A stretch of 64,000 nt of DNA from NCBI RefSeq assembly GCF_018350175.1, contig NC_058368.1, positions 109,432,001 to 109,496,000 of the forward strand, written 5' to 3'. Position 1 is the first letter of the stretch, and every line of letters starts with the position of its first letter. The notes beneath the pieces were generated by a model, which saw nothing but the letters and a program-made list of their open reading frames with translations, was not told the DNA's origin and made no database searches. Origin of the DNA: Felis catus (lineage: Eukaryota). A program made the position numbers and the translations under genes. Positions 368-62,700 of this stretch are shown in pieces.

Positions 368-40766
<40,399 letters not shown>

Positions 40767-42759: not shown

Positions 42760-45700
42760 TTTCTTGAGATATAATCAGACATCATACAAGTCGCCAATTT
42801 AAATTGTAAACATAAATGGCTTTTATTATATACACAGACTATAACCACTATCAATTTTAAACATTTTCATCACCCCAAAAAGGGACTCTATATTCATTAT
42901 AGTGACTCCCACTCATCCCACCCGCTCCTCGCCAACATCCTAGCCCTAGGCAATCACCAATCTACTTTATGTCTCATAGATTTGCCTATTTGGAACACTT
43001 CATATAAATTGAATTATATAATATGTGGCCTTTTGTGAATGACTTCTATCACTTAGAGTAATGTTTTCAAGCTTCAGCCCTGTTGTGGAATATATCAGTA
43101 ATTCTGTACTTATAAGGCTGAGTAATATTCCGTTATGTGGATATACCACATTTTTATACATTTGTCACTTGATGGACATTTGGGTTATTTCTACTTTTTG
43201 GCCATTATGAATATTGCCACTACAAGTTTCTGTGTGAACATGTTTCATTTCTCTTACATCTAATATGCCTACAAGTGGAGTTGCTGAGTCATTCAGTAAC
43301 TGTAATGTTTAACATTTTGAGGAACTACTGAACTTTTCTCTACAATGGCCACACCACCAGCAATTTTTCATTCTCACCAGCAACGTTATGAGGTTTACAA
43401 TTCCACCACATCCTCAGCAACACTTGCTACTTTCTTGTTTTGTTTTGTGTTTTGTTTTTATAGTCATACTACTGGTGTAAAATAGGATCCTATTACAGTT
43501 TTGATTTACAATTTCTTGATAACTAATGATGCATTTGCTTTCACCTGCTTATTGGCCATTTGGACGTCTTCTTTAGAGAAGCATCCGTGCAAATCCGTTG
43601 CCCATTTTGTCTTTTCATTATTAAGTTGTAAGAGTTCCTTCTGTATGCTAAATACAAGTCCCTTTTGGGATACACAGTATGCATACATTTTTCTCTGTGG
43701 GTTGTGTTTTTAATTTCTGGAGATCATTCTTTGAAGCTCAAACGTTTTTTGATTTAGATCAAATACAATTTATATACATTTTTTCTTTTGCTGTTTCTTT
43801 CGTTGTGTTTTTGGTACATATCTAAGAAACCATTTCCTAACCCAAGGTCATGCAGACTTATTCTTCTAAGAATTTTATAGTTTTAGCTCATACATTTAGA
43901 TCTATGATGTATTTTGAATTATGTTTACATAATGGTGTGGTACAGGGATCCAGCCTCATTGTTTGCATATGAATATCCAGCTGTCCTATCACCATTTGCT
44001 GAAAAAACTATTCTTCCCTCCACTGAACCACTTGTAGCACCCTTGCCAAAAATCAGTTGATCATGAATGTGACTTGATTTCCAAACTCTCAATTCAATTC
44101 CATTGATCTAAATGGCTAACCAAATGCCAGTACACCTTGATTGCTATAGGTTTGTAGTAGGTTTTGAAGTCATATAGTATGAGACCTCCATCTTTGTTCT
44201 CTTTTTTCAAGATTGTTTTGGCTATTGTGAATCCTTTGCATTTCCATGGAAACTTTAGAAACACCTTGTAAATTTCTGCAAAAAGCCATCTGGAAACTTA
44301 ACAGGGATTACATTGAATCTATAGATCAATTTGGTAAGTATTGCCATTTTAACAATGCAAGTCTTTTCATCTATGAACATGGAATGCCTTTCCATTTATC
44401 TATGTCTTCTTTAATTTCTCTCAGTGATGTTTTGTCGTTTTCAATATATAAATAATGCAGTTTTTGGTTGTATTCTTGAATATTTTAGTCTTTTGTATGC
44501 TATTGAAAATGGAATTATTTTCTTTCTTTTTTTTTAAGTTTATTTATTTTGAGAGTGACAGAGAGTGTGAGCAGGAGAGGGGTAGAGAAAGAGGGAGAAT
44601 CTCAAGCAGGCTCCACACTGTCAGCGCAGAGCCCAGTGTGGGTCTCGATCCCACCAACCATGAGATCAAGTCCTGAGCCAAAATCAAGAGTTGGATGCTT
44701 AACCGACTGAGCCACCCAGGCATCCCTGGAATTATTTTCTTAATTTTATTTTCAGATTGCTCATTGACAGTGTATAAAAAATTGATTTTTTCTAGTACAT
44801 TGACCTTGTACTCTGAACTTCCATGAACTTATTACCTCTAATAGTTTTTTAGCAGATTCCTTAGGATCTTCTATATACAAGATCTTTATTTCTTCATCTG
44901 AAAGATAATTTCATTAGATACACAATTCGAGGTTGGTAGCATTTTTCTCTCAACACTTTAAATATCTCGGCCCACATCTTGCTTGCATGATCTCTGAAGA
45001 GAACTGAAATGTAATTCTTATCTTTGCTCTTCTATAGGTAAGTTTCTTCCCCTCCCCGCCTCCAGCTTCTTTCAAAACTTTATCTTTGATTCTCTGTAGT
45101 TTGAATGATATGCCTAGGTATACTTGGGAGGCATTTATCCCACCTGGTGTTCTTTGAGATTCCTCGTTCTGTGGTTTGGTGTCTCATATTACCTGAGGAA
45201 ATTCTCAGTCATCATCACTCCAAATATTTCTTCTATTCCCTTTTCTTTCTTCTCCTTCTGACATTCGCATATATTTTAATGTAAATTTAATGTAATGTAA
45301 ATCTTAATGAAATATATCTCACGTAAATAAAAGTGCACAAATCAAAAATGCACCGCTTGATCAGTTTTCGCAAGGCGAACACGTGTGTAATCAGCATCCA
45401 AATCACGAAACAGAACATTTCCAGCCCTGGAAGCTCCTTGTGTTCCTTCCCAGTCACTATCCACAGCCCTCTAACGGTAACCACTATCTTAACTCTTAAC
45501 GTTACAGATTTCGTTTTTCTTGTTCTTATACTTTATGTTAATGGAATTATACAGTATGACGTCTTTTGTCTCTGTCCCTCAACATTCAGTATTATGTTTG
45601 TGAGATTTTTTTTCTTGTTGGGTGGAGCATTAGTCCATTCTTTTTCAATGTGGTGTAGTATTCCAGAGTGCGAACATACAAAAATTTGTTTATTGCATTC

Positions 45701-46099: not shown

Positions 46100-47150
46100 T
46101 GTGTGCCGCAAAGCCCTACTGTGAAATAAGACGCGGGGTCTGCGGCCCGGTGAACTTCTCCAGGGCCCAAGTGCTCACCAGGTGACGCATTCCGGATTCG
46201 GGACTCTGGTCCTGGGGCTTCGGGCGTCGGGTGGGGAAGAAGCGCTCAGCGGGAGGTGGGGGCGGGGAGTGAAAGAAGACGGAATCCTTCACCCACCCGC
46301 AAGCACTCCACGCGCCACAAGCTGTGAGCAAGTGTCAAAGCCCGGCGGGTTGGGAGTTCCAGGAGCTGCTGCGCGCCCGGGCTGGGGGTGGGCCCGCCAA
46401 ACCCTCCCCGCCCCGGCGCGGCCCTAGCTGCAAGTCCCCCGCGCCGGGTTATAAAAGGCCGGCTATGGCGGGACCCAGACCCAGGAGCCGGCGCTCGCCA
46501 TGGCCTCCGGCAGGCGGCTCCCCTCGCAACCTTCGGCCCCAGGGGGGAGATCAGAGCCGCGTTTGGGCGAAGCGGCCCGCGGCATTCTTCTCCCGCGGCC
46601 TTGGTGGAACCCGTAGCTCTCCGCGCCGTCACCGAGAGGACCCCGAGCTGCCTGTCCCGCTCTCGGTGCCGCGCCAGGTCCGCAGCTCCCGCGGCCACCC
46701 CTCCAGTCCTCAACCCCGCGGGTGCCGTGCGAATGGGGACGCCCTCTGGATGAGCGCCGACTGGCCGCCCACCCGCAACTGGCCCTGGGACGCGAGGCGC
46801 GCCCGTGGCGTGGCGGTCAACCCCAGGTAGCGGGCCCCGCGGCCGGAGCCTTCCGGGAGCACGTTCACCCCCTTCCTCTTGCGCGCACGGGAGCGGCCGG
46901 GTTCCACCTGCGCCCGCGCCCAGGTGAGCAGCACCCTGGAGGCGGGGACCTTCACCAGGTGCGTGCCATGCACGAGGCACGAGGCGGCGGTCGCTAGCCC
47001 CTCTCGCAGAGAGGACGCCTTTCTGGTAGGTGCTTCGGAAGAGGTCTTGAGTTGGGAAACCCTGCTTAGGACCAAAACGGGCGCGAGGACCATCTCAATC
47101 CGTGAACCGCTGGGCAACACTCAGTCCCATCGCGGTTTAAGGTGCAGGGA
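46100..47150. promoter_or_regulatory. CpG island / CCNI2 promoter with TATA box
   Basis: CpG-dense block; TATAAAAG at 46450-46457, GC boxes at ~46260 and ~46406; ATG 46500 in gccATGG context. Confidence 0.85.
46500..46826 (+). CDS. CCNI2: CCNI2 exon 1 (327 nt, interrupted by TAG 46614-46616)
   Basis: MASGRRLPSQPS...WWNP*LSAP...LDERRLAAHPQLALGREARPWRGGQPQ|gtagcg, one frame throughout. Confidence 0.8.
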
Positions 47151-47259
47151 CGTCTCACATCCCCTCTGGTGACCTTCAGCAGGCTTGTGTCCACACAGGC
47201 GAACCTACACTGGCCACCAACGACCTTCCCTGCCCTCCCCTACCCCTTCTTTCCAACAG

Positions 47260-47388
47260 GCTGAGATCTGCCACAAGGTCCAGGAAATCGTGTTGTCGCT
47301 CCTGGGGCTTAAGAACATTTTTAACTTCTCCCAAATTACTTTTAACCTGGCTCTCACTACCTTCAGCCGCCTACTGGTTTCAGTAAAG
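47260..47388 (+). CDS. CCNI2: CCNI2 exon 2 (129 nt, cyclin box helices 1-2)
   Basis: caacag|GCTGAG...GTAAAG|gtaggg; AEICHKVQEIVLSLLGLKNIFNFSQITFNLALTTFSRLLVSVK. Confidence 0.9.
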
Positions 47389-47898
47389 GTAGGGGCTCTG
47401 GGGGTGGTAATAGAGGGTGGGAGAAGAAACTGACCTCTGCCCTCGATTGCTGCCTGAGAGGTCCACTATCCCAGCTGCTTAGAGGCTCATAAACTAAGGG
47501 TTACATCCCACTACCCAGCCTGTCTGCCTCAATGTTGTGTGGCTGTCCCTCTGAAGGGATCTAGCTGGGAAAGGACTTACTGTGTGATCATGTGGGGTGT
47601 GTTTGTCTGGATCTCGCCATTGCAGCCTGTGGTCATGATGTGTTCCCCGAAATGGTGCTGTATTTCCCACCCTCGTTCATCCCCCTAACAAGGGACTACT
47701 GACTAGCCACTGGTGCTTCTGAAATCAGGGGCATATTCACGGGTCAAATGTAAAACATGGCACTAATTGGTGGAGGAATACAATACATCTCTTTTTGAAG
47801 AAAGGAAAAAACATAATTTCCCAAAGAAACCCACCGGTGCTTGACTATTTGTTCCTGGCATTCATATTCTGGTCAAATGTGTTTGTTCCATACTTCAG

Positions 47899-47973
47899 AT
47901 AAGAGAGAGATTACTCCATTGTGTCATGATTACTTGCTTGAGACTTGCTGCCACATTTAATGAAGAAGAGGAG
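47899..47973 (+). CDS. CCNI2: CCNI2 exon 3 (75 nt)
   Basis: ttcag|ATA...GAG|gtaggc; IRERLLHCVMITCLRLAATFNEEEE. Confidence 0.9.
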
Positions 47974-49468
47974 GTAGGCATCCCTGGGAGTCCACTCTGG
48001 GCTGCTTTTGAAGTATAGGAGTGTTATACTGGAACATTCAGACTCCCAGAAAGGTGTGTCCTTAGGAATGGTGGGCTTTTTAGAAAATTCATTAACTTTC
48101 CAGGATCTCTGCTGTGCTGCCTTTAGCCTTGTTGGACCTCAAGACCCCATAATGGGCACTCAGAACAGCTGAATTCTCCTGGTCCAGCAAACCCAGAGGT
48201 CTGATCTCCTAGCAGATATATCTTTATTGGTCGATGTCTGATGCCACCTCCCACTGAACAGAAACATTGGCTGCTGAGCTAGGAAAAAGGCCTCCCCAAA
48301 CCATGTGCCGTAATGCCCCCCCCCCCCTAGAAACCTGTTGAGACTTAAGGACTTGTCTGTGTCACTGAAGCTGCTCTTCAGGGACTTTGGGACCCTTCTC
48401 TTGAGAGGCAGGAGGGCCATGTGCCAGGGGTCGAGGAGATGCCCCCACAAGTGCTTCAGGCTTGCTTGAACTTGGCAGTTTCACTGTAGTTTCTGTTGAG
48501 AAGATTCTCTCCCAATATCCTTTCCAGACCCCCCTCCTTCCATCTCCACAAACCTTCCCCCTTTAGGGATAGTAAAGCCTGTCATTGCCACAGGGTTCCC
48601 CTTGGCTAAGTTCAGGGTCTGAAGGGTCAGAAAATATCGTTTGTGTGTCCAGTTCCAAACATTGAGTAAAAATGCTTTTAACCCCTGTCCATTACAATAT
48701 AATGTGTGCTCCCCTCCAACAAAGTTGCTTTTTTTTTCAACTAAAAATCAAGTAAATGACCCTTAAAATAAGTGTTTGTGGAGGTTATAATAGTTGTTGG
48801 CTTACCTAAAAAAGTAGACTGGTCTGTGCAGCACCTGGTACTTGAATAAGTCTTATAAGTCCCTCTGGGAAAAAGTCCTTGTTTTTCCAGAACTGAACCG
48901 CCTTAAATCAAGGTTGAAGGAAACGTGGTTGTAGCTATGGTGTTGCCAAAACCACGGGAGGTTTTGTGAGTGAGCCTGTCTAGTGCAGACCGGGAAGTTC
49001 AAAGACCTACTTTTGCTCTCTATGACAAGTAATCACCGTGGGGGTCGGGAACAGGAATGATAAGGATAAAAACCGTGCAGCTGAATGGGGGGGACGCGGC
49101 ACAGCCCCGCCCTCCAAAGGACCTTTGGGCATGAGCTGGAGTGCGTTTGTGGATCGAGGCCTGTTTGCACTGAAACACCATATTGTACACCTAAAATTGA
49201 CCTCACACCATATGTTAACTACGCTGCAGTTAAAACAAAAACTTGTTTGCAGAGGGTGACCATGTGCCATTCACTACACGTTGTCATAACTACCTGGGAC
49301 TTGACACATGGCCAAAATCTGACTTGGTGTTTCTGTCAGAAGCATTTTCTGTGGCATGTCACGAGAAGACAACTCTCCTAGGGTCACGGATGCCCGGTTC
49401 CCATGGATAAGAAAACAAGTTACCATGACATGATACAGGGCTTTGGCCTCTTTATTTTCTTTTTACAG

Positions 49469-49609
49469 TTAATTCCACGCATAAAAGACTTCATAAAGCA
49501 CTACGGCTCTGGCTATACCCCGGGCGAGCTGCTGAGGGTGGAGCTGGCTATTTTGGACAGACTGCACTGGGACCTCTATATTGGGATACCGCTGGACTTC
49601 TTGACCATA
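49469..49609 (+). CDS. CCNI2: CCNI2 exon 4 (141 nt)
   Basis: tttacag|TTA...ATA|gtaaat; LIPRIKDFIKHYGSGYTPGELLRVELAILDRLHWDLYIGIPLDFLTI. Confidence 0.92.
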
Positions 49610-49974: not shown

Positions 49975-50541
49975 CACCTACACACGATCCTTATTGAGGC
50001 TTTAGACCATATTGATCTGGCACTTAAAAAATATTGTATTAGTTGGTATTTTTTGAGTTGGGGAATGATGGTCATTCTTAAGGAATGATTCCGTTAGTAA
50101 GGCAAAATTATGCAATGGGAAATGTATGGGGTTTTGGTCGGTTAGGAAGCATGAAGATTAAATCACTAAGGGCTGTTTCATTCTGAAAACTGGCCATTGT
50201 TGCCAAGTTGCAGTATACAGATACAAGTAACTTTTCTGCTATCTTAATCTTGAATAGTATGCTTCTGTTTTTCAGAACTGAAACATTGTCATCTAGGTAC
50301 TTTAAGCTCTTAATGACCATCCCAGGAAGCAGATTGTCTTTTCTCTCCAAGGTTGAAGCTCAGCTTGGCCACAGAATGAGTATTAAGCTTCAAGTCCCTT
50401 TTGGGGCCATGGATGGGAATGGAAGGGGTTGGGCAACATCGGATGCTCCCTGATGGAAATTTAACTTGTTTGCACTTTTGGTCATTGATATATGAAAGGT
50501 ATGGGGTTTTCTGTTCTAACATTAAAAACCACGGTCTCTAG

Positions 50542-50772
50542 TTCCATGCCCTGGTGGTCCTGGGCTGGCCCCACGTGGTGGAGCTGCTGCCTCAGAGGAA
50601 TCCTTCCCTCCACGTCGCGTCCCTGACCAGGCAGCTGCAGCACTGTATGGCGGGCCACCAGCTGCTGCAGTTCAAGGGCTCCACACTGGCCTTGGTCATC
50701 ATCACCTTAGAGTTGGAGAGGCTCATGCCCGACTGGTGTACTCCTATATCTGATCTGCTAAAGAAAGCACAG
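50542..50772 (+). CDS. CCNI2: CCNI2 exon 5 (231 nt)
   Basis: ctctag|TTCCAT...CAG|gtagac; [77 protein letters not shown]. Confidence 0.93.
50592..50757 (-). CDS. SEPTIN8: SEPT8 distal terminal coding exon, antisense inside CCNI2 exon 5
   Basis: gctttctttag|C AGA TCA GAT...; [55 protein letters not shown]; phase matches the 60022 donor; matches the recalled C-terminus of the long SEPT8 isoform. Confidence 0.88.
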
Positions 50773-53700
50773 GTAGACATCAACTTTGCCCCGGACCAGG
50801 CTCTCAGTTTTGCCCCTTGAGCTGATGCACTCTGCCCCCAAAATGGTACGCATCGCCCTTCTTGGCCCCTGTGGGCTCCAGATGTTCTGGCCACAATGAC
50901 TCTGTGAAGAGTCTACCTAAGGCCTAGGCTCTGTACACTTGGCATACCCTCTGGATGAGTATGGGGTACATGTTCCCTTCACTGGACCAATTGGGTGGGT
51001 TTCTTGACAGTGAAAAGAGCTTTATCTCAGTGGCAGCCCTTGTTGTCAAGAGGATGGGGTGAAGTCCAGGGCATGTGCCCGGCTCAGGAGGAAGCACCCC
51101 TGAGCTTAATATTGCAGCGTGTAAATCTCAGACCCCTCACCTTTTATCTGACTGTATGGTATCAGGTACTGGGGTACCATGAGGGAGGCACTGAAGGATC
51201 GGAATCTCTGAGTATGGACAGGGTAAGATGGAAATGCATAGTTAGATGAATGACAGTTTTACTGAGGTTGGAGGTGGATGTCCCTGAGATGGTGGGGTTA
51301 ATGCTCTTGAGCCAAACAGTTGGAACTTCCTGAAATTACTCTGTGCTAACATTTAAGCACTCACTATTTTATTTGGAATGTAAAATGGTTCTGTTTCAAG
51401 GATGACTCTATTTTAATTACAGGTCAGTAGTGAGCAGTTGAGCCACTGCAAGGAACTTGTAAAGCAGCACCTGAGAAGTTTGTAGTCCTCTTCCTGCTCA
51501 GACAACTTTGTTTCACTTCCCAGCCTCTGTGGCCCTACCCTAGTACCCTTTAGAGCATCATGGCAACCCCTTCTTGCTGGGACGCCTCTAAATTCTAGGC
51601 TTTATGGATCCTGTAATAATAAAGGAAGAAGGCACTGGAAGGCAACTGAGAAAAAGCTCTCGAGTCTTGAGAAGGCAGTAAGGAGAAAAAAGGCAGGTCG
51701 GGGGTCCCTGTTGGGAAGGGTGGTCTGACAGATCAAGACCCTGCTCTCCTCTCCCATGGGTCCGAGACCAGCATGAATGAATGAATGGTCATACTGCACC
51801 TTGGTTTTCCCTTCTTCTCCAGCATGGACTGGTAGTGGCCCCTAAGGGAACTGGAGTCAGGCCAGCAGTGGGCCTTGCTCAGGACCGAAGGGCCGGGCTG
51901 GTTCTGACTGACCAGCTTGTGCTGCTCCACCTACGGAGCTGGCCAGGTTCTGTCGGCTTCCCAGACTTCTGGGAAGTGTAGCACTTCAAGTGCCAATGAC
52001 CTTGCCCATCATGGCAAAAATGGGACCGTTTCTCCAAATGAATGTCCCCTGACTTGGCCATGACCTAGGTCTTCTCTTCATAAGACCTGGATCATAAAGT
52101 ATGCTTTGTTCAATGTACAGTAACTTGGTCAAGCTTCACACGTTTGTCCTTTGTTACTCTTAAGCAAAGTAGTTTACTACCTTAGAGGAATTTTATGTTT
52201 AAGAATGATCTCAGCAGCTGACCCCTGATGGGGAAACACAGCTCTGAGAGCTTTAGGTCGAGATGAGCAGGTTCTGAGGCTGAGGCTGCTCCCAACATGC
52301 CACTGCTAGAAGGAGATGACTGGCACAGCCGTGAGGGAGAAGCCAGCTGTCTCTCGGACAGCAGGACACTACAGAGCCATTGTCTGGGCAGGAGACTCCA
52401 GCAGGCAGAGCTGCCCCCTGGAGCTGTGTAAGCAGCGTCGGGAATACGAATGACAGAACCACACATTTCACAGTGATTTCTGAAGTCTTGCCACCCTGAG
52501 CAGTTTTTTGTAAACAGGCTAAGCTGTGAGGAATACGACCTGCTGCTAGATGCAGAGAGGTCACAGACCAGGTAGACTATAACAGTGCGCGTATGAATCT
52601 CTACCTATTGTCCACACAAATTTGCCTGGTGGAGCTTCTGTAAAAATAAAGTTTAAGTCCTTTCAACCTCATCAGAATCTTATTTTAAATGTATTGGATA
52701 TCCAGCATTTAGACTCGATAGTCACATACACTTAGAATACCACCTCCTGGGTCCCAGCAACAGCTGTCTGTAGTCCAGCACCAATGGAGAGGCTGAGGCA
52801 CATCCTGCTGCTCACAGCAACCCCTCCCAGGGCCACAGCTGCCCCCTGCCCCCTTCCTTGTGCTGGGAGTGAGGACTGGGGGCAGGGGGAGCAGGGAGTA
52901 CGGGCTCATGCTGAGCACCCATCCCAGCTCTGGCTCTCTCTGACTTTGGAGAACTGCAGGGAAGTCTTGACCTCTTAACTAGGGAGCTCTGAGTGGAAGC
53001 TGGGTCCTCAACGCTAATCTCTCAGAGAAAGGAGAAGGTGGACCTGTGTGTGAACCCTGTACTGAGAAAAGGGACAGCCCTGCTTTAGTAAACAGTATTG
53101 CTCTTTGAGAAAGCAAACTTCTGCGTTGCCAAGTACCACTTGGGAGTTTGAGAAAAGTTTTTAGGCTGTTGAGGCTCACCTTGGGATTCCAGGTCCCATC
53201 TTCCTCTCTCTCCCTCTCCCTCTCCCTCTCCCCCTCCCCCTCTCCCTCTCCCCCTCTCCCTCTCCCCCTCCCCCTCTCCCTCTCCCCCTCCCCCTCTCCC
53301 TCCCCCTCTCCCCCTCCCCCTCTCCCCCTCCCCCTCTCCCTCTCCCCCTCTCCCTCTCCCCCTCTCCCTCTCCCTCTCCCCCTCTCCCTCTCCCCCTCTC
53401 CCTCTCTCCCTCTCCCTCTCTCTCTCCCTCTCTCCCTCTCCCTCTCTCCCTCTCCCTCTCTCCCTCTCCCTCTCTCCCTCTCCCTCTCTCCCTCTCCCTC
53501 TCTCCCTCTCCCTCTCCCTCTCCCTCCCCCTCTCTTTTTAAGCAACTCCTATCCCACCTCAGATCAGAGATTGGGATTGTTGTGGTGGGAGAAGTATGGA
53601 CACGATTTGTCTTGCTTTTGTCCCTGTCTACAGAAGGGGAGGGATTGGTGAAGGACTGTAGCTACAGAAAATGGAGAGGAGAGAAGACACGGGCAGATGG

Positions 53701-59700: not shown

Positions 59701-62700
59701 CAGAGCCTGAGACTGAGCCAGGAAAGAGAGAGACAGAGAGAGAGAGAGGAATAGAGAATCGGGGTGGGGGGGTAACAAGGGGTTACCTGTGCAAGACAGA
59801 GCATGCACAAATACCCAGTATCCTGAGATATCAAGCTCACCAGTGAGAAGAAAAGAAAGGAGGGCAAGAATGAAGTGGGAAAGCGTGTGGGACTGAGAGC
59901 CAAATGGTGACTAGGCAGAGCATGGGCGAGAACCAAAGTAGACTCAAGGAGCCAAGAGTAGGACAGAGTGGGTGCCCAGGAGGGAGCAAGAGCCAGCGTG
60001 GGCAGGAGGCCCACCACCTACTTCTTCTTGTCCTTGTCCTTCCTCAGAGGCTGCTGCGAGGTGGCGTGCAAGGCCTGGGACTGCAGGGCCTCCACCGCGG
60101 CCTTCCTGCGGTTGAAGGCGCTAGTCTCCTCCTCCAGCTCCCTGCGCTTCTCTTCCACCTTGCGCTTCTCCTCCTGGTGGACCCGCTTGAGGTGCTCAAA
60201 CTTCTCGTGCAGCTGGGAGCAGAGGAGGAACAGGGGCTTCCTGTGAGCCTGGCCAGGCCCCGCCCTCCCTCACCTGGCCTCTCCCAGACCTGGAGCCCAC
60301 ACGTACCTCCCTCTCCTTCTCCTTCAGCTCCAGCTCTGTCTCCTTCACTTTGTTGACGAACATCTGCCTCATCTCTTCCTCCTTCCTCTGCAGCTCACTC
60401 AGGAACTCCTTGCGCTTGGCCTCGTAAGTCTCCTGCAGACTGTGGAGACGCACAGACAAGAGGCCAAGGGTGGGATTGTAGCGGGATGGGATGGGGCAGA
60501 GCCGGAGAAGGGGGATCACTTGGGCAAAGGAGGGTGCCAGGGTCCCCACGCCCCTCCACCTGGCTCATGAGACACCCCCCCCGCCCCCACCAGGCACAGC
60601 TGCCAGCATGGCAAGTCTGGCCGTGGCTGTGGAGATGGGCTCACGCCCCACGCAGGATGTCACCTGAAGGGCTGGCTGTCACCATCGCTGTCCTGGAAGC
60701 CCATCTCCTCCAGCTTGCAGCGCCGGTACAGCTCGTAGTGCCGACTGTGGGTCTGTTCTCGGAGGTCCTCCATGTTCACTCTGATCAACATCTCCCGGAG
60801 CTTCACAAAGTCACAGTGGTTCTCATTCTCCACTGAAAGCACAGGGCCCGTGGGGCATCAGGTGAACACACACACAGGTGGGCACAGGGAGGAAAGAACA
60901 CAGGAACAGCAGTCAAGTGTTCCAGGCCGACTCCATTGGCAGCACAGGCACTGGACAGTCAAAGGGAGGACATAGGCCAGGAGACTGAGTTTAGGCCCAC
61001 CACCTGGGGATGTGCTCCCTCTAGTCACTTACCCTGCACCACTCCCCATGGGTACTGCCGTGCTCGGACCAGCTTGTTCCCCACCTTCACCTCTTCAGTG
61101 CTGCCTACCACAGCGAAGGGCAAGTGCGCCTGGAAAGGAGCCCAAGTATGGGTGAGCAATGGGTGGACAGACTAATGGACAGACCCTCCCTCACTATCCT
61201 GGACCCCAGGGAAGGGATGCCACACCTGAACAAGGCGTGGCCAGATGCTTGCTTCCTGGCTCTCTTTTGGAGAAGTATCCTAAGGCCTCCAAATAGGAGA
61301 GCGGGCTGAACCTGCACCCCCGTCTTCCTCACATTTGAGGGGTTCTTTCAGACCTTGGGCTCCCTAGGGGCCATTAGAAGCTCCCTCACAGGACCTGCAA
61401 GCCTGGCTTTCCTCCATGTTCCCAAGCTCTGGCATCTTACCTGCTTACTCCTACAGGTTTCAGTTCCTGCCCTGCATCCTTATCTTGTGAAACTTAAGCG
61501 TGGGAAAGGCCCAGCACCAACCCAATACCCAATTCCTCCCATCTCCTGGCCGTAGGACGTAGGACTGGCTGGCTTCCAGATGCCCACCCACCCGTCTTTC
61601 CTGAATCCTGGAAATCCTGGGGAATCCTGGGGGAGCCAGAGTCTCTGGGGCTGCCACAGATCTATGCTGGCTCCAAGCCCCCTCTGGCCCTGAGGCCAGT
61701 GCCCAATGCTCACGTTCATGACTGCGTTAATCTCGGCAACAGCCTCATCATCAGTGGGAAACTGGTAGATCTGAACCCCATTGCTGACCAGCTCGCCCAT
61801 GATCTTGATCTTGAACTTGTGGAGCTCACTCTTGGAGATGGTGTCAGCCTTGGCAATGATGGGAATAATGTTCACCTGCCAGGATGAGGGGTGAGGGGCA
61901 GCAGGTTAGTTCTCCCTGACTGTGGACAGCCCTGCCCAGTCCACATCCCCAGGCAGAAAGGCAGGAGGCCAGAGACATGGAGCTGCTCCCATGGGCAGCC
62001 CCAGCCTGAACCCAGCCACCTGGGGCCTTTCTAATGGGTGGTACCAATTGACTATGGGGCTTCTTACAGCCCTGGTTCCCTCAAACCACCATCTAGCCCT
62101 AAAAACTAGTCCTCTGGGCAAACCCAGCTTTGGTTTTTAAATAAGAAATAATTCAGCTAGGGCTCAGGACCAGACTAAGGAGACAGAGCTCTACAGAAAG
62201 AACCCAGAGTGATGAGGGCCCATTGGAGCAGTAGGGAAAAGGCAAGAGAAAACAGCACCAAGCCCAGGAGCTATCTGCAGGCCCCTAAGCAGCAGAGCCC
62301 CTGAGGACCACAGTAGACAGTCACACTGCAGGCCCCAACTCAGCGGAGGACCATGAAGCCCACGGAACAAGTTTGGGGGGCAGGGTGTGTACCTTGCTGT
62401 CTAGTTTCTTCATGGTCACCAGATCCAGGGACTTGAGGGAGTGCCCAGTGGGCGTGATAAAGTAGAGGCAGACGTGGACCCTCGTATCGTGGTAGTCGAA
62501 GAGTGAGCGGCGGATCTTCAGCTCCTCCTGCAGGTAGTTTTCAAACTGCGCGTCGATGTAGTCAACTATGGGCCTGTAACTAGAGACAGCTCCATCACTC
62601 CTGAGGCAGGCACTGAGCCGCAGGGCGCGGGCTGCCCCCAACCTGCTCTCTGTAGGGACGAGCGGCTTCAGTCTGGGGTTCCCTGTCTGGGTACAGGTGG

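Follow-up and report, generated by a model that had tools for sequence, protein, structure and literature searches.

A stop codon at codon 39 of feline CCNI2 and the probable felid-shared inactivation of an often-lost mammalian gene

CCNI2 and its neighbors in the window

The DNA analyzed here, hereafter the window, is a 64,000-nucleotide stretch of Felis catus contig NC_058368.1. It carries CCNI2 on the plus strand, flanked upstream by a kinesin gene and downstream by SEPTIN8, both of which lie on the minus strand, the latter tail-to-tail with CCNI2. The kinesin gene, which we take to be KIF3A, has motor motifs at 13497-27948 (minus strand) and a CpG island at 40-41 kb, and is oriented head to head with CCNI2; the human order kinesin/CCNI2/SEPTIN8 is presumably the same. 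A putative L1-like remnant is located at 44894-45183 (minus strand) upstream of the CCNI2 promoter, and a long purine/pyrimidine low-complexity repeat (53085-53550) lies within the last SEPTIN8 intron. The identification of the gene as CCNI2, made in the original prediction, is supported by this neighborhood and by protein comparison: cyclin-I2 proteins across vertebrates were retrieved with exon 5, and the best matches were the cyclin-I2 proteins of carnivores and other mammals. All 235 residues compared with the Felis catus model and all 166 compared with the snow leopard model are identical in the window, intron-derived stretches included. The features of the locus are as follows.

46450..46456, plus strand: TATA box (TATAAAA), a putative promoter element in a CpG island (CpG o/e 0.78-0.92), 50 nt before ATG 46500
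46465..46467, plus strand: +1-frame ATG used by the lynx model, 15 nt from the first T of the TATA box
46500..46826, plus strand: CCNI2 coding exon 1, 109 codons with a stop at codon 39; 78% identity to meerkat cyclin-I2 over the full length
46614..46616, plus strand: premature TAG, codon 39; Trp in meerkat and in a second feliform protein
46722..46724, plus strand: in-frame GTG, codon 75, a candidate rescue start within a few codons of the CCNI2 starts of birds, reptiles and coelacanth
47260..47388, plus strand: CCNI2 exon 2, in which the cyclin box begins
47899..47973, plus strand: CCNI2 exon 3, containing ATG 47926
47953..47955, plus strand: codon 171, ACA (Thr), site of the cyclin-defining Lys; Thr in lynx too
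49469..49609, plus strand: CCNI2 exon 4, with M201V at 49538-49540 and the defining Glu (codon 202) retained
50542..50772, plus strand: CCNI2 exon 5, codons 241-296 of which lie opposite SEPTIN8 coding sequence
51423..51485, plus strand: coding part of CCNI2 exon 6 with the normal stop; AATAAA at 51618
50592..50757, minus strand: last coding exon of the SEPTIN8 long isoform, with a Cys-Cys palmitoylation/filopodia-inducing motif
60022..60212, minus strand: penultimate SEPTIN8 coding exon (Septin-8, E 6.6e-31), with a phase-2 donor

From the ATG at 46500, which sits in a strong context (GCC ATG G), 38 open codons are followed by TAG at 46614-46616, beyond which the same frame stays open as far as the exon-1 donor after 46826. 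The joined gene consists of six phase-0 exons with GT-AG ends and encodes 321 codons plus a stop, with the codon-39 TAG as its sole internal stop and all 10 splice sites canonical. The first in-frame ATG after this TAG is codon 162 (47926), which falls within the Pfam Cyclin_N domain, placed at window codons 118-213 by means of the hyena ortholog; an open frame running from an AUG across the whole cyclin box is absent from window CCNI2. In-frame near-cognate codons 3' of the TAG are GTG at codon 75 (46722) and CTG at codons 83, 88, 94 and 96. The strong start, the stop and the continuation to a phase-0 donor, the restriction of the next ATG to exon 3 inside the cyclin box, the GTG, and canonical splice sites throughout had all been predicted, and the sequence and the joined frame bear them out.

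A sequencing or assembly error in GC-rich DNA had been offered as one explanation of the TAG, and exon 1 does have a GC content of 74%. All 124 sampled 31-mers of 46300-47500 (fraction 1.00), however, were present in 14 of the 24 listed runs, representing 10 samples, one of them possibly the window's own source, and six studies; under random sampling, the chance that no sampled 31-mer covers the TAG site is about 3%. The lynx gene model, which is independent of the window, also marks the identical site. On these grounds we reject a base error, an extremely improbable cause of the TAG. Because the run list ranks the best holders of these words, cats with a sense or heterozygous allele may exist, and fixation is not established by it. 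Scans of metagenomes for carnivore DNA gave 0 matches and then 13 loci, which proved to be chance matches of at most 27 nt with no tblastn match.

Origin and age of the stop codon

Codon 39 is Trp in both of the non-felid feliform proteins that cover the site, namely that of meerkat and a second one close to hyena (two differences in 51 residues), from which a TGG-to-TAG transition is inferred. Ser, suggested by ungulates as the ancestral residue, was considered and rejected, since the nearer feliforms have Trp. The Lynx pardinus model begins at a +1-frame ATG equivalent to 46465, runs for 32 residues, of which 30 match the window's +1 frame, and picks up again precisely at codon 40. The 56 nt that this model skips open, on the window, with GT and close with the AG of the codon-39 TAG. 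As a gene finder requires that AG and TGG offers none, the lynx protein model makes it likely that lynx carries the same TAG; a 56-bp genomic deletion would yield an identical model. With the TAG implied in lynx, its origin probably predates the split of cat and lynx, approximately 7 million years ago.

None of the four felid models found (cat, lynx, snow leopard and Prionailurus) keeps the frame of ATG 46500. The Pfam Cyclin_N cut-off is 23 bits, and the cat, Prionailurus and snow leopard models fall below it at 16.4-20.5 bits; the proteins of hyena, meerkat, dog and rhino score 60-72 bits and the lynx model 47.5 bits. The three low-scoring models fit an older, felid-wide lesion, though they do not establish one.

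A recent loss or a segregating null allele had been put forward as well. Since the lynx model points to this TAG in a second felid, an allele that is private or of very recent origin is improbable; the run list, which ranks the best holders, still allows for cats with a sense allele. We nevertheless find it distinctly improbable that the TAG is a common segregating null allele, or that it originated separately in cat with some other cause behind the lynx model. Such a reading draws on the run list, which gives the best holders with no view of heterozygous or allele-lacking samples, and on the fact that the lynx evidence is a protein model rather than DNA. It is at odds with the avoidance of the ATG-46500 frame in all four felid models and with a lynx junction placed exactly at the TAG. 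CCNI2 does not occur in the 12 supplement files covered, out of 16, of a cat variant paper (PMC7581003), a weak argument since CCNI2 may be unannotated there.

Several gene models have peculiarities of their own. In the harbor seal model (P0182) the frame shifts, the protein stops within exon 3 and codon 102 is likewise Pro; at the corresponding position one dog model (P0132) shows an unusual patch, close to a GA repeat where exon 3 begins. Additional CCNI2 lesions that arose independently in carnivores may underlie both. Exon 3 (47899-47973), with the site of the defining Lys, is skipped in the cat, Prionailurus, deer and one donkey model, possibly as a common splice form. The cat and meerkat models run exon 1 into intron 1 (46827-47025), with a donor near 47025. 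In the models of a hominid-like primate, Aotus, Microcebus and Myotis, exon 5 is extended 16 codons upstream (window 50485-50541). In the window the acceptor's TAG closes this extension, at the place where those models have Gln, so the longer exon-5 isoform would also be stopped.

The cyclin box, selection and the antisense SEPTIN8 exon

The PF00134 cyclin box is encoded by exons 2-4, downstream of the TAG. At codon 171 the window has ACA (Thr), and lynx likewise has Thr; the aligned residue of cyclin D1 is the Lys that is described as cyclin-defining and required for CDK binding (PMC6971155). This codon is Lys in 30/30 non-felid rows aligned there, the count having been obtained from 37 projected homologs, six of which had no aligned exon 3 or were misaligned and one of which was the lynx. 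The defining Glu is kept, as Glu202 aligns with the Glu of cyclin D1. Lys171Thr is predicted to weaken CDK binding, which would likely be poor even for a rescued protein. Other felid changes are L92P and L102P, found in window and lynx, and M201V, found in window, lynx, Prionailurus and snow leopard; over codons 40-224 the lynx model is 97% identical to the window. The proposed loss of function of CCNI2 is supported, at the level of sequence, by the real in-frame stop and the lost defining Lys.

At conserved columns within codons 84-224, the window departs at 5 of 65 and lynx at 6 of 65, as compared with 0 in dog and elephant seal, 2 in hyena and 3 in meerkat; orthologs with no known stop depart comparably (Aotus 4, pika 6, Dipodomys 7, tamandua 7). 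Snow leopard codons 158-177, Prionailurus codon 109 and the exon-5 rows of lynx and meerkat were discounted as alignment artefacts of partial models, and N-terminal departures of pig and Myotis were also discounted as probable artefacts. Relative-rate tests against hyena and meerkat yielded no significant result (e.g., 8 versus 5, p 0.58). Window and lynx differ at 5/185 codons, where 4.9 would be expected under neutrality at an assumed divergence of 1.2%, and over a comparable region the window-lynx difference (4/141) equals that between dog and arctic fox (4/141). Between the cat and snow leopard models there is no difference in the 144 residues compared from exons 4-6. For exons 4 and 6, 0 changes are seen against ~2.7 expected if neutral (assumed divergence 1.8%, P ~0.07), and adding the non-overlapped part of exon 5 gives a P of 0.03. 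The protein-level comparison therefore points neither way, and relaxed selection on CCNI2 is neither shown nor excluded.

The conservation of exon 5 has to be read with its opposite strand in mind. Among 23 placental orthologs, CCNI2 residues encoded by exon 5 differ from the window at 46/1288 positions (3.6%) inside the SEPTIN8 overlap and at 54/368 (14.7%) outside it, and those of exons 2, 3, 4 and 6 differ at 18-38%. Exon 5 looks intact since the SEPTIN8 long isoform has its last exon encoded on the other strand, and exon-5 conservation consequently tells little about CCNI2 function; likely, part of felid CCNI2 stays pristine only through the use that SEPTIN8 makes of the same DNA. The overlap is presumably visible in human annotation, and among the papers listed in our literature search none described a CCNI2/SEPTIN8 coding overlap.

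Among the homologs of the antisense exon are a protein bearing the name Septin-8, with 98% identity, and the C-terminal end of a fish septin, and the peptide is conserved to teleosts; a PDB match for it was not found. As predicted from the DNA, it would be joined in frame to the penultimate, coiled-coil exon of SEPTIN8 from the phase-2 GT donor at 60022 to an AG acceptor at 50757 or 50754. These are tandem TAG/CAG acceptors 3 nt apart (50754-50757, minus strand), both of which keep the frame. Minus-strand AATAAA motifs at 49456 and 49974 are candidate SEPTIN8 3' UTR ends, and a UTR extending to the farther one would span CCNI2 exon 4. The antisense peptide has Cys-Cys near its C-terminus and Arg at +6 and +11, a spacing identical to that of C469, C470, R475 and R480 in mouse Sept8 exon 10b (PMC6092797). 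Exon 10b is described as NOVA-regulated, with a palmitoylated filopodia-inducing motif, and as promoting dendritic branching and spines; Ccni2 and an antisense overlap have 0 occurrences in that paper (PMC6092797).

CCNI2 exon 5, dual-coding with a SEPTIN8 exon that is important in neurons and conserved to fishes, is a trap for arguments from conservation. Exon-5 conservation, gene models or unstranded read counts would not show that CCNI2 is alive or expressed, and probes and siRNAs directed at exon 5 in other species likely call for similar care.

Interpretation and comparison with known systems

We consider it likely, with reasonable confidence, that the felid CCNI2 ortholog, with its real stop and Thr171, is a unitary pseudogene that arose through the proposed TGG-to-TAG change before the cat-lynx split. 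Ribosomes initiating at the strong ATG 46500 would produce a 38-residue peptide and stop with five exon junctions still downstream, for which reason the mRNA is a predicted target of nonsense-mediated decay (NMD). If translation restarted at Met162, the product would be missing the beginning of the cyclin box, and an upstream non-AUG restart would still yield a Lys171Thr protein. We infer fixation of the TAG, NMD and absence of the protein. A single frame-breaking lesion, canonical splice sites and an intact CpG island and TATA box count against the pseudogene reading, and N-terminal or single-exon lesions are reported to be frequent in conserved genes (PMC5865188). Since antisense SEPTIN8 constrains exon 5, the preserved splice sites and 3' half say less for a recent loss than they seem to.

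Three ways in which a protein might still be made were weighed against this reading. CCNI2 could be alive in a shortened form that starts by re-initiation or leaky scanning at GTG 46722 or CTG 46746, giving approximately the length of bird proteins, or at Met162, giving 160 residues. The codon-75 GTG adjoins the position at which non-mammalian CCNI2 begins, the N-terminal extension of mammals varies (caniforms are without ~30 of these codons), a second frame break is absent, and exons 4-6 are identical in cat and snow leopard; three RNA-labelled runs and three guessed to be RNA also hold 0.43-0.73 of the words of the region, although these may be DNA. The strong context of ATG 46500 nevertheless opposes such a start, and non-AUG re-initiation after a 38-codon ORF is generally poor. 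Hyena and meerkat share Val75, which is therefore not a new compensation; the product would carry Thr in place of the defining Lys together with Pro at codons 92 and 102, and the Met162 product would be without ~44 codons of the cyclin box. We regard the shortened form as unlikely. The sequence may instead have rescued itself, if the new AG served as the acceptor of a 56-nt intron that joins ATG 46465 to codon 40 in the manner of the lynx model. This join is in frame and GT-AG on the window, it was picked by the lynx annotation pipeline, and the lynx model passes Cyclin_N at 47.5 bits, but 4 of 9 donor positions match the consensus (6-7 in real donors), pyrimidines make up 47% of the acceptor tract (53-88% in real ones), and 56 nt is below the usual mammalian intron minimum. 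ATG 46465, only 15 nt from the TATA box, likely lies upstream of the transcript start and is untranscribed, and the Lys would still be missing, which makes this mini-intron very unlikely. Readthrough of the codon-39 TAG to give a full-length protein has a slimmer chance still. The TAG is followed by C, a leakier context, and a hairpin can form downstream; this hairpin is no more stable than those of shuffled sequences (z -0.55), we know of no readthrough motif that matches the site, and the product would again lack the Lys.

Every rescue route, whether by GTG 46722, mini-intron or readthrough, is thus possible but weak, and each gives a Thr171 protein. A bolder proposal, which we think quite unlikely, is that the stop turned the mammal-specific N-terminal extension into a regulatory uORF (or else gave rise to the acceptor of a rescuing mini-intron), with a non-AUG start near codon 75 producing a Lys-less, CDK-blind cyclin under selection. 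If it were true, the ancestral short CCNI2 would have been restored and kept under selection beside the antisense SEPTIN8 exon.

The pseudogene reading, which we prefer, places cats among the lineages that lack CCNI2. Its product is an activator of CDK5 in human and chicken, the gene is reported absent from mouse and rat (PMC5256034), and the supplement of PMC9355568 calls it lost in 13/38 mammals, including ferret, Myotis, camelids and galago; the gene is dispensable in other mammals on this evidence. The same gene was lost independently in those lineages. Consequences for cat biology are probably minor, given that mouse and rat are without the gene. Cat (felCat8) was screened in PMC9355568, yet is absent from the CCNI2 loss list of that supplement. 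The gene-loss pipeline, as described, disregards mutations that fall within the first 20% of a protein (PMC5865188), and a loss call requires <60% intact (PMC9355568). Codon 39 of 321 lies at 12% of the frame, and a single lesion fails the loss criteria of this Sharma/Hiller pipeline. The type of felid loss, consisting of one early stop plus a missense change, is what standard gene-loss screens are built to miss. Among the papers listed in our literature search none dealt with felid CCNI2 loss, and CCNI2 appears neither in the supplements of PMC6386725, PMC7671337 and PMC10208646 nor in the main text of a cheetah preprint (10.1101/2024.04.26.591110).

The locus is probably a felid-shared inactivation of an often-lost mammalian gene, and as such a further, modest case of a known kind. 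In comparison with known CCNI2, the window copy is alike in its exon blocks, Cyclin_N domain and long mammal-type N-terminus, and differs by the stop at codon 39 and by Thr in place of the defining Lys. Cyclin F (CCNF/FBXO1) is likewise described as a cyclin fold without the defining Lys (PMC6971155). In contrast to cyclin F, felid CCNI2 retains the Glu, and its loss of the Lys, known here from sequence alone, is lineage-specific.
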